Assembly (NCBI GenBank): GCA_016840085.1
Contig: JAEOTA010000085.1
Span: forward strand, 17,441 to 81,440
Length of the DNA: 64,000 bases
Direction: 5' to 3'
Source of the DNA: Promethearchaeota archaeon
GTDB lineage: Archaea; Asgardarchaeota; Lokiarchaeia; Sigyniarchaeales; SOKP01
Shown here one piece after another: positions 55,224 through 61,000 of this stretch. Positions within the stretch are counted from its first letter, which is position 1. Each line of letters begins with the position of its first letter. Both the position numbers and the translations under genes were made by a program. Below the pieces are notes generated by a model that made no database searches, was not told where the DNA came from, and saw only the letters and a program-made list of their open reading frames with translations.

Positions 55224-56201
55224 CTATTTTAATTCAATCAGAATCTTGATAAAATCTCTTTCACCAGGCTTTAAAAATGATTCAAAAGTTTCTTGAACAT
55301 CCTTTAAAGGTATAACTTTGGAGATAAATTTTGCTGCATCAATTTTGTTTTGACCAAATAGTTCAATTGTAGAAAGGATGTCATTACGATCATGTCCTAG
55401 GCACCCTTTTAAGCAAATTTCTTTATTAATGATTTGAAATGTAGGAATAGACATACCTTTTTGAATTCCTTCCAATAATAATGTTCCACCTCTTTGAATT
55501 AAATCAATTGCCATCCTTAAAGTGTCTTCACTTCCTACACAATCAAAAACAATAGAAGGTTGCCCATGTGTCTTTACAAATTTCTTTATTTTAGCTTTAC
55601 TTGGGGGAAAAGCATCAATCGCACCAAATTCCTTTGCTTTTTTCCTTAAAAATTCATGAGGTTCTATCACAATTACATATTCAGGACTTTTTTCACTTAA
55701 CAAAGTGACTAGAAAAGCTAATCCAATATTTCCTCCTCCAATGACCATGATCCTCTGGTTATTTTCTATCTTTGACATTCTTATAGCTCTTATTATATTA
55801 GCAAATGATTCAATCATAACAGCTTCTTTTATAGAAATCGATTTGGGGGGATAAAATATATTACTCCTTCGCACTTTCACATACTCTGCAAATCCACCAT
55901 TTTCAAATATTCCTAATCCTTTTAATTCTCCCATAACATATTGCGAAACATTCATAGCAATTACTTTATCACCAACATTAACATCTTTAATATTCTCACC
56001 TATTTCTACTATCTCTCCAGAAATCTCATGCCCCATTACTAAGGGAACTTGATACATCTTATATTTAAAATTGGTAACATCGCTTCCACATATTCCACAG
56101 AAATGTACTCTAACCAGAACATCGTCCGGACCAGGAACTGGTTTAGGATAATCTTCCTTATACACTATTTTTTGAATATCTTCAAAAACCGCTGCTTTCA
56201 C
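55224..56201 (-). CDS. Zinc-dependent medium-chain alcohol/polyol dehydrogenase
   Basis: CGICGSD, GHEISGEIVEIG, Rossmann VIGGGNIGL. Confidence 0.85.
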   Translation of the reverse strand: MKAAVFEDIQKIVYKEDYPKPVPGPDDVLVRVHFCGICGSDVTNFKYKMYQVPLVMGHEISGEIVEIGENIKDVNVGDKVIAMNVSQYVMGELKGLGIFENGGFAEYVKVRRSNIFYPPKSISIKEAVMIESFANIIRAIRMSKIENNQRIMVIGGGNIGLAFLVTLLSEKSPEYVIVIEPHEFLRKKAKEFGAIDAFPPSKAKIKKFVKTHGQPSIVFDCVGSEDTLRMAIDLIQRGGTLLLEGIQKGMSIPTFQIINKEICLKGCLGHDRNDILSTIELFGQNKIDAAKFISKVIPLKDVQETFESFLKPGERDFIKILIELK

Positions 56202-56351
56202 AATATTTTGAACTTTTAAATTTGATTTCTATTAAACCAAAAAAATCAATTAATAATTTCTCATAAAAATATATAATACTTATTTTATAGTGATTTATAT
56301 AAAATTAGATTTATGATGAATATTAGAAAAAGAAAATTTATTTAGAGCATT

Positions 56352-56594
56352 ATGAAGCCTCCTATATATTGCATATGTGATGAAAAATTAAAAGATATGA
56401 ATGACGGTGGTTTGATAGATTTTAAGAAACGGCTTTCTGATATTGAATGGGAAAAACATATGGAAAAAATTAAAGGTGTTGGACATCCTCCATATGCGGA
56501 ATGGTTCTGTAAAAAACATTATGATAAAGCAAGTGAATTAAAACACTTACCTATTGACAAAGCTTTAAAAATTTTAATGTCTGAAGGAACTTAA
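56352..56594 (+). CDS. Small Cys/His-containing hypothetical protein
   Basis: 80 aa. YCIC...WFCKKHY motif similar to the 2910..3140 ORF. The last 7 codons lie inside the mvhD-remnant repeat. Confidence 0.4.
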   Translation: MKPPIYCICDEKLKDMNDGGLIDFKKRLSDIEWEKHMEKIKGVGHPPYAEWFCKKHYDKASELKHLPIDKALKILMSEGT

Positions 56595-56669
56595 TTCTTT
56601 AATTTGGTTAGTAAACTCTGTAATTATCTCAGCAAATCTCTTCCCTTCAGATCCGCTAATTCATTCTAA
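56574..56669 (-). pseudogene. Remnant copy of the mvhD 3' end with an in-frame TGA
   Basis: Reverse translation gives [30 protein letters not shown]. Intact mvhD has [31 protein letters not shown]. 95-bp direct repeat with 57588..57682, offset 1013 bp. Confidence 0.75.
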
Positions 56670-56730
56670 TTATATTTACTTAATTAATATAAATTTAGTA
56701 ATATCCAGTATCTCCATCACTATTATAATT

Positions 56731-57256
56731 TTAAATCCTTAGCTTTTTCCAATAAAATGGTATAGTACTTTTTTTCCATCCATAAACCCATCTCAATCAT
56801 TTTATCAAGTAATTCATGGAATTCTTTATAATTTTTCAAGATTCTTTTTTCAAGAGCTTCTAAGAGAATTTCAGTGCTCCATTTCGTATTGATACTTTTT
56901 GATTCAGCAATTAACCTGGCTCTCTTATCGTTTACAAGTAATAAGTCAGCATTTAGCTCTAAACATAGAGCTATGGCATATGCCTCTCCGCGCCCTAATT
57001 ATTTTGTAAGATTTAAAGCAATTTCATGAGATTTATCTGATTCCGGGTCTTTAACGATAAGCCATCCTTCTTCTTTAGCATTTAATTCATATTTTATATC
57101 TTGTGGGATTTCCTCATCTAGTTTAGAAAATGGATGTATTAATTCTTCCCAAACAGCATTATGAATGAATACTGTCGAATATAATTCTTTTAATAGAAAT
57201 AATTTCTCAATTTTAGCAAAAAATATTAAAGGAGAGGTATCAGAAATAACTATCAT
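56731..57256 (-). pseudogene. DUF3368-type PIN-domain toxin interrupted by an in-frame TAA (56999-57001)
   Basis: MIVISDTSPLIFFAKIEKLFLLKELY...HEIALNLTK*LGRGEAYAIALCLELNADLLLVNDKRARLIAESKSINTKWSTEILLEA..., all in one frame. Confidence 0.7.
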
Positions 57257-57267
57257 ATAAATCAGTT

Positions 57268-57504
57268 TTATATATGAACAGGTATTCTGGCTTTTGTACG
57301 AATCAATTCTAACTCTCGATATGAAATTCGTGCTATTTCAGAAGCTTTACCAAATGATATATCTCCTCGCATATATAATTCTAAAGCATCTTGAATAGCC
57401 TCTGGAAGTGATCTTATATATTCCCAATCTATAGGTTTAATTAAATCCTTTTGATTGAACCAATATTGACTTAAATCACTGTTCTGTACCATATTATATC
57501 TCAT
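57268..57504 (-). CDS. UPF0175-family antitoxin
   Basis: ALELYMRGDISFGKASEIARISYRELELIRTKARIP. Sits 11 nt upstream of the PIN gene. Confidence 0.7.
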   Translation of the reverse strand: MRYNMVQNSDLSQYWFNQKDLIKPIDWEYIRSLPEAIQDALELYMRGDISFGKASEIARISYRELELIRTKARIPVHI

Positions 57505-57562
57505 TGATTCTTATTCAATAATTTAAAGGAAATATTCATATAAAATTTTATTGGCTTAAATA

Positions 57563-58033
57563 TTAACTGTTATCTTCTATACTCTTATAATGTCTGAAGG
57601 GACCTAATTCTTTAATTTGGTTAGTAAATTCTGTGATTACTTCAGCAAATCTCTTTCCTTCAGATGCACTGACCCATTCTAAACGCACCCTTTTTGGATC
57701 TACTCCTAATTGTTTAATCAGAATATTATGTAATCTCTCGAATCGTTCCTGTGTATATTCATTTCCAGTAATATAATGACAATCTCCAATATGACATCCA
57801 CTTACTAGAACTCCATCAGCGCCATTTTTTAAAGCTTTTAGGACAAATGATGGATCTACTCTTCCAGAGCACATTACCCTAATGATTCGAATATTCGGAG
57901 GGTATTGAAACCGTGAGACTCCTGCTAAATCTGCTCCTGCATAACTGCACCAGTTACAACAAAAAACTAAAATATGAGGTTCGAATTCTTCTTTTTTTAC
58001 TTTTTTTCTTGATCGTGACATTTTCTTATTCAC
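57563..58033 (-). CDS. mvhD: Methyl-viologen-reducing hydrogenase delta subunit
   Basis: [37 protein letters not shown]. Overlaps the hdrA stop by 8 nt. Confidence 0.85.
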
Positions 58034-61000
58034 CTTTAGAATTAATAGTTGCTTTTTCTAATAAATAGGAATCTATCATTGTATTGATCTGGTCAAAATC
58101 ATAATGTTTTACTATTATTGCACCTACAGGGCAAGTTGCAGCACAAGTTCCACAACCTTTGCACACAGCTGCATTTATATTTGATTTCTTCACTATGATG
58201 CTTAGATCTTCAAATTCTTTAGTTATTTCCGTAAGCTGTATTGCTTTATAAGGACAAACCTCCTCACATTTACCACATCCTATACATTTTTCTTCTAAAA
58301 CCTCAGCTACCAATCCAGATGTGGTAATTTTATCAGCACTTAAAAATCTACTTGCTCTGCCCGCTGCACCGTTAGCTTGTGAAATTGAATCTTGAATATT
58401 TTTCGGCCACTGAGCACAACCACATAAGAAAATCCCATCTGTAGCAAAATCTAAGGGTCTTAATTTAACATGAGCTTCTAAGAAGAAACCGTTTTTATCC
58501 AATGGAACTTTCAGCATCATTGCTAATTCTTTAAGATTGTCAGCTGGAATCATGGGTGTTGAAAGTATTACCAAATCTGTTTCAAATTCAATATTATCTT
58601 TCAAATTAGTATCAAATACTTTTATTTCAAACTTTTCTGAGCTTCTTTTTTTCTTTTTTACTACTGGCAGATTATCTAGGTCATATCTTAGAAAAATTGC
58701 ATCTTGTCTACGTTCACGATAAAATTCCTCAAAATATTTCTTAGCCATTTGCAAATCCCTATAAATCACAACTATTTCTAACTCAGGCTTCTTTTCTTTT
58801 AAGATTCTAATGTTTTTAATTGAATTCGCGCAACATATATTAGAACAGTAAGTAATTCCTTCGTTTTGTCTAGCATTTACGCATAAAATCATTGTTATTC
58901 GATTTATATTTTCTAACCATGATTTATCCTTGCTTTTTAATTTCTGTTCTAACTCCAATTGGGTTATTACATTATTATTTTTATCGTTATAGCCAAAAAG
59001 ACCATTAGGTTTATACTCTTGACCACCAGTAGCAACTATGATAGTTCCAATTTTTAACTCATGGATTTCGTTATTTGAATCATTTAATATCACGTCATAA
59101 TTTCCAACATACCCTTTAATACTCTTAATTTCAGCATTAAAGAAGGTTTGGATGTTATTGTTTTTTTCTATCTTTTCTTTTGTTTCATTTAATAAATCTA
59201 ACGCATTTTTATGAACTGGATACAATACATTTAAAAATCTTAGGTTTCCCCCTAATTCACTTTCTTTTTCAACAATAATAGTTTTAAATCCTTGATTAGC
59301 AGTATTTAATGCAGCAGTCATTCCCGAAATACCTCCACCAATAATTAATGCTGTGTGTGTAATATCTATTTTATCTTCCTTTTGTGGTTTTAATAATCTT
59401 GATTTAGCAACATGCATTCGAATTAAATCCATGGCTTTTTCTGTAGCTGCTTCTTTTTCTTTCATATGAACCCATGAACATTGATCTCGAATATTTACAA
59501 GTTCAAAGAGATATTTGTTTAAACCCGCTTCCTGACATGTTTCTTGAAATAAGGATTCATGGGTTCTAGGAGTACAAGACGCAACAATAAACCTATTTAA
59601 ATCATATTCATCAATTAATTCTTTAATCCTTATTTGGGAATCAGGTGAACAAGAGTATAGATTATCTTCACACAACACTACATTTGGGAGGGTTTTTACG
59701 TATTCTACAACTTTAGGGACATCTACATAATTTCCTATATTAATTCCACAATGACAAACCATTACACCTATTCTTGGTTCATCTGTAATTTTAACCTCTT
59801 TTTCTGGTATATCAAATATTTTCTCTTGTATTTTTGTGAATTTAACAGCATTTAGTAACTCGGCAATTTGCGCAGCCACCCCGCTGGCATCTGCAACTGT
59901 CTCAGGGATGTCCATTGGGCCTTGGCAGAATCCACATAAGTAAATTCCTTCTCTTGTTGACTTTAATTTATTAAAATATGATTTTTCTTGGAAGAAATTG
60001 TATTTATCCAATTCAATACCTAACACTTCTCCTAACTCATTAACTCCTTTTGACGGAACTAGAGGTGAAGCTAAAACTACTAAATTTGCACGGAAATCCT
60101 TAAATTCACCTGTCTTTAAATCTTCATAATGTATGAGTAAATCATTTGTTGCAGGATTTTCTTCGATGGTACTGATCTTAGATTGGAAATATTGTACTCC
60201 ATATTCTTCTTGTGCTCTTTGTGTGAATTCGTAAAAATTTTTACCATATGCGCGAATATCATGTCGAAATATATAACATTTAGAATTTTCAGAATGCTCT
60301 TGAGTAATAATTGCTTGTTTTGCAGTGTATGTGCAACAAACACTAGAACAATAAGGTACATTTTCATGAAGATCTCTAGAACCCGCACATTGAACGAAAG
60401 CGATTACCTCAGGTTCTTCTTCATCGCTTAACCGCATAACATGCCCGCTAAATGGTCCAGATGCGCATAATATTCTTTCATATTCAAGAGCACTTACTAC
60501 ATTTTCGTATCGATAACCCCATCTTGAAGATAATTTTTCAGCAGGCATCTGAAAACCTGTAGCAACTACCACAGCTCCAACTTTAATCTCAAATTCTTGT
60601 GACTTCTGCTCAAAATCTATTGCATCAGCAGAGCAAGCTTTTTTACATACTTGACATACGCCCTTCGTTAAATATAAACACATTTCTGGATCAATTAAAT
60701 AAATAGGGGGTACTGCTTGAGGAAAAGGAATATATATGGATTTTCTTGTACCAATATTCATTTCAAAAGGATTTGGAGCCATTATTTTTGGGCACTTGTT
60801 TGAACATTCTCCACATCCCTTACACTTTGTTTCATCAACATATCGAGGTTTCTTTAGAATTTTGGCAGTAAAATTACCAGGTTCTCCATCAATTTTAAGA
60901 ACTTCATGATATGTCATTAATTCAATATTAGGATTACGAAAGACTTCAACCATTTTAGGGGCGAGGATGCATAATGAACAATCTAATGTTGGAAAAGTTT

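Follow-up and report, generated by a model that had tools for sequence, protein, structure and literature searches.

The window analysed here is a stretch of 64,000 nt from a Promethearchaeota archaeon (assembly GCA_016840085.1, contig JAEOTA010000085.1, positions 17,441-81,440 of the forward strand; GTDB lineage Archaea; Asgardarchaeota; Lokiarchaeia; Sigyniarchaeales; SOKP01), and all coordinates given are window positions. It contains a gene cluster with the order hdrA-like, CCG-domain, hdrA and mvhD, of which mvhD is the terminal gene, and beyond this lies a small toxin-antitoxin (TA) insert (Table 1), the neighbours of which are mvhD itself, a small ORF of 80 codons, an ADH gene and a sulfatase gene. 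At least 8 congeneric species have orthologues of the 80-codon ORF, with 52-81% identity, and Pfam and NCBIfam profile searches with it gave no match. All of the genomes compared below are metagenome-assembled.

Table 1. Features at the 3' end of mvhD, in window coordinates.
Feature	Position	Strand	Remarks
mvhD	57563..58033	-	156 aa; Pfam FlpD 3.8e-58
Proximal target copy, functional mvhD 3' end	57585..57682	-	sequence alignment
Inserted fragment, 915 bp	56670..57584	-	missing at the empty site in five congeneric species
A-T-rich upstream region, ~47-60 nt, presumed promoter	57505..57564	-	conserved across independent cassette copies
Antitoxin gene, UPF0175-like, intact	57268..57504	-	78 aa
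PIN/DUF3368 toxin gene, now a pseudogene	56726..57256	-	one in-frame TAA
Distal target copy, decaying mvhD end	56572..56669	-	sequence alignment
Cys-rich 80-codon ORF, function unknown	56352..56594	+	convergent with mvhD, conserved

The preliminary description had reported that the end of mvhD is present twice, and this was borne out: a 98-nt segment, comprising the last 31 mvhD codons and the stop codon, occurs in a proximal and a distal copy lying 1013 bp apart from start to start, which are 87% identical (13 of the 98 positions differ), and local alignment of one flank against the other scored 65.5 compared to 14 or less with shuffled flanks. The TGG to TGA change, which had been taken to mark the distal copy as decayed, was located at 56661-56663, and at 7-8 of the 13 differing positions the distal copy carries a derived base that changes the residue in the mvhD frame. 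The SSFRH end of this copy, which had been read as aberrant, is instead the ancestral one, as all relatives stop immediately after the codon matching it and the distal copy retains this stop position (TAA, 56574-56576, minus strand). It is the proximal copy that has been altered: the last codon of mvhD in the relatives corresponds to 57590-57592, TAT has replaced the stop at its ancestral position (57587-57589), and the functional mvhD has gained 8 codons from the junction and the insert (57563-57589, YKSIEDNS and stop).

To the left of TTAGAATGG, alignment with the relatives continues from the proximal copy only, and to the right of CATTA only the distal copy aligns with them, running into the antisense of the 80-codon ORF; the last 7 codons of this plus-strand ORF, as had also been stated, and in addition its stop codon fall within the distal copy. 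The differences between the two copies are unevenly spread, with 10 in the first 54 nt, a 24-nt identical stretch and 3 in the last 44 nt, which could be the product of a crossover. A third copy of the segment, 86% identical, forms the 3' end of a paralogous mvhD situated 8.5 kb upstream, outside the window.

The interior of the insert holds a UPF0175-like gene and a PIN/DUF3368 gene and no others, both on the minus strand like mvhD, in agreement with the preliminary description; the antitoxin gene precedes the toxin gene in the same orientation with an 11-nt gap between them, and this pairing is conserved in more than 30 loci. Matches of the window proteins to Pfam were below the cut-offs, both for the antitoxin (UPF0175, E 7e-5, 22.9 bits, cut-off 27.9) and for the toxin (PIN, 22.2 bits, cut-off 23.6; DUF3368, 18.4 bits, cut-off 27.3). 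All six intact toxin homologues matched DUF3368 (best E 6e-7) and 4 of the 6 matched PIN, and PADLOC PDC-S70 was matched at 3.6e-33, so that the cargo is predicted to be a VapBC-like type II toxin-antitoxin pair of the UPF0175 / PIN-DUF3368 type. Searches of NCBIfam, Rfam and the sequences of solved structures were uninformative on the TA proteins and the region; PPR matches among the solved-structure sequences were limited to the helical C-terminal part and are probably compositional. Of the 151 genomes of the order, 16 have antitoxin homologues of 56-82% identity adjoining PIN genes, and the search for the same pair elsewhere in the source genome, which had been recommended, found the antitoxin only once. 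As the homologues begin at the MVQ codon (57492), the real antitoxin product is probably of 74 aa.

The toxin gene is present as had been described, but an in-frame TAA (56996-56998) after codon 85 of its otherwise open frame of 176 codons had been missed. The residue found there in intact homologues is E, N, Q, H or D, and, as judged from its reading frame, the gene is already an inactivated pseudogene. Antitoxin dN/dS was 0.21 against the nearest homologue, and that of the toxin was 0.17 before the stop and 0.10 after it, the low value downstream of the stop suggesting that the loss of the toxin was recent. The cassette family as a whole has a patchy, mobile distribution and frequently decays, with the toxin decaying first. 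Homology to the other cassettes begins at 57551-57564, upstream of the antitoxin gene, and the A-T-rich region there is presumed to be the cassette's own promoter. Retrotransposition of a TA mRNA was considered and judged unlikely, because the conserved cassette includes ~50 nt of this A-T-rich sequence.

Comparison of synteny downstream of mvhD, proposed earlier as a check, revealed an empty site in five congeneric species (G024, G002, G003, G005 and G004), which lack the TA genes and have the 98-nt segment just once. In these species hdrA is followed by mvhD, which overlaps and converges on the 80-codon ORF, and then by the ADH gene, and the matches to the two flanks of the insert overlap there on one target stretch, by ~85-100 nt in each species. 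The pattern that had been named as contrary evidence, two mvhD ends without TA genes, was sought in the relatives and none was found. The empty sites therefore show a lineage-specific insertion with a target duplication of 93-98 bp: a TA cassette was inserted at the 3' end of mvhD, and the gene end was preserved through the duplication. The earlier proposal of a cassette at the mvhD end with the end regenerated thus holds for the insertion and for the keeping of the end, but the original stop was lost and 8 codons were added. Similarly, the module had been placed inside the terminal gene of the operon; it does lie at the mvhD 3' end, but after the last gene of the hdr/mvh cluster, and the operon is not split. 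The duplication protects the ends of two overlapping convergent genes and not that of mvhD alone.

No recombinase or transposase gene was present in the insert or its neighbours (~5 kb), no inverted repeats were seen at the insert ends, and the locus had no tRNA and no convincing RNA-family matches. The insert ends showed no visible microhomology to the bases immediately preceding the target, either at the mvhD site or in a further insertion, on contig L077 (see below), although this is weak evidence. Homology between independent cassettes is limited to 56729-57551/64, the insert being unique over its other 20-33 nt and 59 nt, and the cassette has neither fixed termini nor a mobility gene. Circular permutation of the cassette was also considered, as the non-coding totals of two events are alike (133 and 136 nt), but was discarded as their unique end pieces are dissimilar.

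Two further insertions of the same TA family, with duplications of ~75 nt and 48 nt, were found to have empty sites in relatives. The former is present in two independent MAGs (G131 and G062), where the cassette is flanked by ~75 nt of the 3' end of a flavoprotein gene, and its empty site is seen in G122 (92-93% identity). The functional, gene-attached copy of G131 is as similar to G122 (76/83, 92%) as the whole gene is (93%) and hence looks native. An objection that the decayed copy of G131 has diverged too far for a duplicate made in place was dropped, because divergence between G131 and G122 at four-fold sites is 25%, which makes a decay of 18-20% plausible. The latter insertion, on the metagenome contig L077, has perfect 48-nt repeats (48/48) around a TA insert of 1106 bp, with the empty site in G090. 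A fourth event, involving a different VapBC pair (MazE/AbrB and PIN), lies in the source genome itself (C6:10269-11433), where the pair is flanked by ~110 nt of the end of an acetyl-CoA-synthetase-like gene, and G024, G002 and G013 have the empty site.

Across the four events the repeats are thus of 48, ~75, 98 and ~110 nt, the target sequences are unrelated and the inserts are all of ~0.9-1.1 kb; in the TA family as a whole, significant flanking direct repeats were found at 5 of 19 loci. One boundary of the duplication lies within ~10 nt of a stop codon in three of the four events, a closer fit than selection by itself would obviously demand, and perhaps a sign of a further mechanism.

The best overall explanation, and in our judgement a highly probable one, is that a fragment of ~915 bp was inserted at the overlap of mvhD and the small ORF and that the target was duplicated. 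The fragment would be a self-contained type II TA operon, consisting of its own upstream region, the antitoxin and the toxin, which may have come in as a chance fragment of foreign DNA that host repair or replication then joined to the chromosome. In the likeliest version of this, staggered breaks ~50-110 nt apart would be filled in and ligated to the fragment, the basis for this model being the lack of fixed ends at the junctions and of visible microhomology between insert and target. The 93-98 bp of duplicated target take in the final 31 codons of mvhD with its stop, leaving each flanking gene with a complete end. Thereafter the mvhD-joined copy would have stayed under selection and the distal copy would have been constrained only over the 23 nt which encode the end of the small ORF, the remainder decaying. 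Retention of the cassette was probably due to an active toxin-antitoxin pair being hard to lose, until one nonsense mutation knocked out the toxin, so that the module would now be decaying.

More tentatively, and with considerable doubt, the events might reflect an unusually active, recombinase-independent insertion of any small foreign DNA in Lokiarchaeial genomes, with target duplications of 50-350 bp, serving as a main route of gene gain for them. Around 40 small cargos in the source genome are bracketed by direct repeats compared to 4 inverted pairs (for repeats of 40-400 nt at 0.3-6 kb spacing, counted in the source assembly only, there were 51 direct and 4 inverted), and the cargos so gained would include TA pairs, enzymes, regulators and Ras-like GTPases. 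A GTPase cargo at locus C89 has many paralogues, and its right flank is found elsewhere in relatives.

An origin of the second mvhD end by import from a donor, either through Campbell-type integration of a circularised fragment or through homology-facilitated illegitimate recombination, seems improbable to us. It would involve a relative in which the TA genes directly follow the mvhD stop, from which the mvhD end together with the TA genes recombined into the present genome and displaced the original end, making one of the two copies foreign. Such an import would account for the repeat boundary being at the stop codon in three events and for the synonymous-site differences between the two copies, and it fits their uneven spread, but no locus of the TA family had mvhD within 1.5-3 kb, whether in the order (151 genomes), among 18 public-collection loci or among 8 close metagenome relatives, and a separate pre-existing donor arrangement would be required for each of the four target genes. 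The distal copy also shares more with the proximal copy (87%) than with the sampled orthologues, none of which exceeds 83%. At the mvhD site taken alone, 98 nt are too short to resolve the origin of the gene-attached copy; the native-like gene-attached copy of G131 and the identical copies of L077 both speak against import. Integrative elements of archaea and bacteria typically target the 3' ends of genes, leaving direct att repeats of tens of bases (discussed in PMC2853133), and TA modules are common on them, which would speak for such an origin of the mvhD insert. That it is the remnant of a larger plasmid or provirus, integrated by a recombinase at an att site in the mvhD 3' end and then reduced by internal deletions, is nevertheless very unlikely, as no integrase, whole or fragmentary, was noticed in the insert or its surroundings of ~5 kb, no tRNA is present, the cassette ends have no common conserved sequence, and the four events differ in target sequence and in repeat length around inserts of just ~0.9-1.1 kb.

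Direct repeats permit precise excision, which would restore a single-copy site, and the empty sites could on this account be deletions of an insertion ancestral to the genus. This is hardly credible given that many independent precise losses would be required, that the cassette was found at the mvhD site in none of 40 relatives by DNA search and in no other of the 151 genomes of the order by antitoxin search, and that the TA family sits at other sites in other congeneric species. A chimeric join during assembly might also create a second mvhD end, and the 89 contigs of the source MAG, its estimated contamination of 7.6% and the paralogous mvhD with its similar end 8.5 kb away would all favour this; we consider it extremely improbable, since with 13 of 98 positions different the copies are not expected to collapse or mis-join in the way of identical repeats, the distal copy is the end neither of the paralogue nor of the proximal copy and runs seamlessly into the orthologous small ORF, and the G131 architecture recurs in an independent MAG.

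How addiction modules that lack mobility genes enter chromosomes is poorly understood, insertion with a long and variable target duplication being the one route described, and the insertion of a TA cassette with duplication of its target, as favoured here, provides clean insert and empty-site examples for the Asgard archaea, with three independent events in one family and a fourth in another. As the toxin is of the RNase-type PIN class, the cargo nuclease is probably not itself the DNA cutter, and repair or replication by the host is the pathway to which this points. The mvhD site also shows how a compact genome tolerates insertion into overlapping gene ends, the duplication saving both genes at the cost of small side effects, here a tail of 8 residues on one subunit encoded by an hdr/mvh-type redox gene cluster. 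Should the tentative reading of a generally active pathway be true, this Lokiarchaeial lineage would be the best available system in which to study the mechanism of insertion with long target duplication.

Among known systems, att-site integrative elements differ in possessing a recombinase, and the four TA events duplicate unrelated targets with no common att core. DDE insertion sequences and casposons resemble the TA insert in that a direct target duplication flanks the element, but they have defined termini and a transposase or casposase, and the insert has neither. Casposon target duplications are of 14-15 bp. Those of transposons are short and fixed, being less than 10 bp as a rule and 19-26 bp for IS1630 (PMC2853133), whereas those of the TA events are of 48-110 nt, vary between events and are accompanied by no terminal inverted repeats. 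The mobile endonuclease ORFs of fungal mitochondria, which bring a substitute gene end, are likewise selfish cassettes at a gene end with a displaced and decaying second copy of that end; the TA insert differs in having no homing-type DNA endonuclease, the gene-attached copy is native-like in G131, the best-resolved TA event, and the identical repeats of L077 indicate duplication in place. In its cargo, the insert resembles the VapBC-like UPF0175/PIN-DUF3368 modules (PADLOC candidate defence system PDC-S70), with small co-oriented genes, antitoxin first, 11 nt apart, and differs in that the window toxin is broken by a nonsense codon and the window proteins match Pfam below its curated cut-offs.

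The closest likeness is to insertion with long target duplication, described for bacterial restriction-modification complexes (Nobusato et al. 2000, Gene 259:99; Furuta, Abe and Kobayashi 2010, PMC2853133; review PMC3874152), which was first noticed in Helicobacter in 2000 and the mechanism of which has been unexplained since. Furuta et al. (PMC2853133) looked for an empty site with two-sided similarity, direct repeats of more than 30 bp on one target copy, no integrase, transposase or tRNA target, an insert of less than 20 kb and a restriction-modification cargo, and no archaeal case survived their screen. The mvhD insert agrees with these in its empty site, its repeats and its freedom from mobile-element features, and departs from them in its cargo, so that this type of insertion, previously known from bacterial restriction-modification, would now extend to archaea. 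In both cases a small addiction-type unit without a mobility gene lies between direct repeats, tens to hundreds of bp long, which align to a single-copy target at the empty site, the repeat length varies from event to event, and the repeats often span a stop codon, so that the target gene survives. The cargo here is instead a type II TA pair with an RNase-type PIN and not a DNA-cutting restriction-modification system, the hosts are Asgard archaea, the same cassette family inserts repeatedly, and the insertion hit two convergent genes where they overlap.

The mvhD gene is the final gene of its cluster, preceded upstream by a 1036-aa HdrA-like gene, a CCG-domain gene and another HdrA-like gene, and the preliminary description held that its end is present twice around a toxin-antitoxin (TA) pair. 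This was borne out: the two copies, proximal (attached to mvhD) and distal (on the far side of a 915-bp insert), form the sole long direct repeat reported, with a flank-versus-flank local alignment score of 65.5 compared to 14 or less for shuffled flanks. Translated in the mvhD frame, the distal copy reads as an mvhD-end-like peptide of 30 letters and, as had been described, the end of a small convergent Cys-rich ORF falls inside it. The region has no tRNA and gave no convincing Rfam match (window C82:17441-81440 of a source assembly of 4.68 Mb in 89 contigs).

The small ORF carries the motifs CxC ... CxxH and has orthologues in at least 8 same-genus species, where it usually overlaps the mvhD 3' end, and it had no family match in Pfam or NCBIfam. 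Second and third paralogous hdr/mvh-type clusters lie in tandem upstream, beyond the window. They hold an HdrA of 1026 aa and a split HdrA, a CCG-domain gene, FrhB-like genes and an mvhD of 143 aa; this mvhD ends KELGPLRPI*, and its end shares 86% identity with the duplicated segment.

Features of the mvhD locus and of compared loci (bare coordinates, window positions; G, genomes, with G000 the source; C, contigs of G000; L, excised loci or contigs)
Feature	Coordinates	Strand	Remarks
mvhD	57563-58033	-	156 aa; Pfam FlpD, E 3.8e-58
Antitoxin gene	57268-57504	-	78 aa; weak UPF0175 match, 22.9 bits against a cut-off of 27.9
Toxin gene	56726-57256	-	11 nt downstream of antitoxin gene; weak PIN and DUF3368 matches when read through
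Small ORF	56352-56594	+	80 aa
Direct repeat (distal, proximal)	56572-56669, 57585-57682		98 nt, 87% identical, spacing 1013; repeat search and alignment
Paralogous hdr/mvh-type clusters	C82:79000-91000 (L004 1-12000)		
Cluster between small ORF and mvhD, G015	L020 2494-9850		
Cluster between small ORF and mvhD, G011	L021 2402-6888		
Cluster between small ORF and mvhD, G017	L022 2226-6505		
TA relic, G021	L023 4980-5330		
TA, G129	L035 1504-2276		
L077 haplotype locus	L077 673-1058		compared with L064/L040 and G059
MazE/AbrB-type TA event	C6:10269-11433 (L159 1470-2634)		
Ras-family GTPase gene	C89:34874-35395 (L161 1575-2096)		173 aa; Pfam Ras 2.3e-37
Repeat-bracketed example	C19:230188-231439		
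Repeat-bracketed example	C5:18391-19495		
Repeat-bracketed example	C5:63623-64505		
Repeat-bracketed example	C68:7990-9897		
Repeat-bracketed example	C69:69034-70109		
Repeat-bracketed example	C83:80826-82890		
Repeat-bracketed example	C83:197572-198664		
Repeat-bracketed example	C89:34769-35486		

Forty relatives were searched with the DNA of 56200-58100, and in five of them (G005, G003, G002, G024 and G004) the matches on the small-ORF side and the mvhD side overlapped on one stretch of ~85-100 nt; the gene order there, by tblastn, was hdrA, mvhD, small ORF (convergent) and ADH, with a single target copy and the TA absent. In a multiple alignment, relatives aligned upstream of TTAGAATGG with the proximal copy only, and downstream of CATTA with the distal copy only, continuing along the small ORF's antisense strand. 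Because of this junction alignment the window is read as a 915-bp insertion with a 93-98 bp target duplication (the final 2-5 nt of the repeat possibly matching by chance), and the empty sites support the earlier proposal that a TA was inserted at the mvhD 3' end with the gene end kept.

In all relatives mvhD stops directly after the codon equivalent to the window's His, and therefore the distal copy (CAT TAA), whose end had been taken as the altered one, retains the ancestral stop. It is the proximal copy that is changed, with CAT TAT reading into eight extra codons, YKSIEDNS, from the insert; the stop was lost either at the junction itself or via a later A-to-T change. The copies differ at 13 positions. 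This lost stop is one of them and is derived in the proximal copy, while 7-8 are derived in the distal copy and change the mvhD-frame residue (the TGG to TGA change already described is among these); the remainder are ambiguous synonymous sites. In three other same-genus genomes, without duplication, a 4.3-7.4 kb cluster separates the small ORF from mvhD (by eye, ThiF/MoeB-, TusA- and ThiS/MoaD-like genes, cysteine synthase, serine acetyltransferase and a substrate-binding-protein-like gene), showing that the mvhD downstream junction is variable within the genus; either gain or ancestral state is possible for this cluster.

The gene pair of the insert is as described, but the toxin gene is broken by an in-frame TAA after codon 85. 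With this and the altered stop copy corrected, the original observation is confirmed and its interpretation supported. The antitoxin is single-copy in the source genome; of 151 genomes from the order, 16 have homologues, every one adjoined by a PIN gene or PIN relic. Intact toxin homologues are of 177-180 aa, have E, N, Q, H or D at the position of the TAA, and match DUF3368 (6/6), PIN (4/6) and the PADLOC candidate defence family PDC-S70 (3.6e-33). Against the nearest homologue (80% DNA identity), dN/dS was 0.21 for the antitoxin, whereas the toxin gave 0.17 ahead of its stop and 0.10 after it; the low value past the stop points to purifying selection there for nearly all of the toxin's history, and hence to a recent knock-out. 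Decay is also seen in other family copies, with a toxin stop in G062 (L033, at TK*ST) and truncations in G021, G112 and G126; the toxins of G062 and of G112 and G126 (L041, L046), where the antitoxin frame is open each time, were inactivated independently. In G021 and G129, two same-genus species, the TA family occupies a different site, with a succinate-dehydrogenase-like flavoprotein gene on one side and a 2-oxoacid:ferredoxin oxidoreductase beta gene on the other, where no flanking repeat was detected; the TA is nearly intact in G129 and a relic in G021 (antitoxin stop, toxin cut after 34 codons).

DNA homology among independent cassettes was confined to 56729-57551/57564, comprising ~50 nt of A-T-rich upstream sequence and both genes, with nothing past the toxin stop. 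What the insert has outside this span (20-33 nt and 59 nt) is without match in the other cassettes; other TA inserts have unique end pieces too. The insert ends carry no inverted repeats, and neither the insert nor its vicinity contains a recombinase. The inserted unit acts like any stretch of DNA that by chance includes a complete TA operon.

When left and right flanks were aligned at 19 loci of the TA family, five gave significant direct repeats (window, 98 nt; G131, 65-75 nt; the metagenome contig L077, 48 nt, perfect; L078, 81 nt; L068, 144 nt), and two besides the window, G131 and L077, were verified with empty sites. In G131 and G062, two MAGs 98% identical at the TA locus, the TA lies between two copies, one decayed and one functional, of a flavoprotein gene's terminal ~22 codons with the stop, IRRPW* being readable in both, and G122 (92-93% identical) has a single copy and no TA. 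G131 differs from G122 at 25% of four-fold sites, so the 18-20% divergence of its decayed copy fits decay in place; its functional copy matches G122 at 76/83 positions, as close as the whole gene. In L077 a 1106-bp TA insert lies in an intergenic region with identical repeats either side, and the repeated block is found once in G090. At least four haplotypes exist at this locus among relatives, differing in the presence of the TA, of an extra 0.9 kb after it and of a small ORF (by eye an antitoxin-like ribbon-helix-helix protein, without Pfam match), which suggests repeated insertions at one hotspot.

Self-comparison of the source genome (pairs 40-400 nt long, with 78% identity or more and a spacing of 0.3-6 kb) gave 51 direct against 4 inverted pairs, in this one genome without control genomes. 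Eleven direct pairs lie within single ORFs; most others bracket 0.5-3 kb of cargo, one copy often being at a gene 3' end. The small cargos, bracketed by ~40 pairs, include, mostly by eye, more PIN TA pairs, winged-helix regulators, enzymes, an ABC transporter and Ras-like GTPases. On contig C6 an acetyl-CoA-synthetase-like gene has a MazE/AbrB-type antitoxin and PIN toxin at its 3' end, and the target duplication of ~110 nt again ends at the stop codon; empty sites were found in G024, G002 and G013 (flank matches overlapping by 112, 105 and 79 nt respectively). Direct repeats of 48 nt and 90% identity enclose the GTPase gene on C89, and its upstream neighbour carries one of them at the 3' end; no empty site was resolvable in relatives, there being many paralogues.

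The simplest reading, which fits all four events (mvhD, G131/G062, L077 and C6), is that foreign DNA was inserted and a long target duplication arose in place, since this needs no pre-existing donor arrangement and accounts for the identical repeats of the youngest case and for the native-like functional copies. It does not explain why, in three events out of the four, the outer duplication boundary and the stop are within ~10 nt of each other. Recombinational import, the donor already having the TA behind mvhD, would explain a boundary at the stop codon and the clustering of copy differences, but no such donor was found among the loci examined, the distal copy is nearer to the proximal copy than to any orthologue, and the identical repeats of L077 and native-like functional copy of G131 speak against a foreign copy. 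That no integrase is present, that the targets are unrelated and that all the inserts are tiny contradicts a decayed integrative element, and an ancestral TA at mvhD is unparsimonious in calling for repeated precise loss. Misassembly is unlikely, as the repeats differ at 13 positions and the pattern recurs in independent MAGs.

For duplication in place, staggered breaks may have been filled in and then ligated to the fragment; since no microhomology between insert end and target is visible at the mvhD or L077 junction, we lean toward this over template switching, on the strength of few junctions. An active TA pair would plausibly be retained through its addictive nature, and the later toxin nonsense mutation is how decay usually begins. 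That surviving duplications span the stop codon is attributed to selection, in keeping with the remark of Furuta et al. on restriction-modification systems; at mvhD the convergent genes overlap, so that a duplication could not be shorter than 23 nt.

The mvhD locus alone is of moderate interest; the genome-wide pattern, resting on an uncontrolled count and four verified cases, may deserve more. Among the titles listed in full-text literature on 'long target duplication', where absence is not proof of absence, none concerned TA cassettes or archaea, and the one TA review there cites no more than the 2000 paper of Nobusato et al. Furuta et al. 2010 (PMC2853133) defined their class by an empty site, repeats of >30 bp and no other mobile element, and reported repeats of 46-423 bp, often spanning start or stop codons, in several bacterial phyla, with no archaeal system surviving their screen. 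The mvhD locus has every architectural feature of this class. It belongs to a kind of insertion event that is known but has been little studied, differing in that its cargo is a TA pair and its host an Asgard archaeon.
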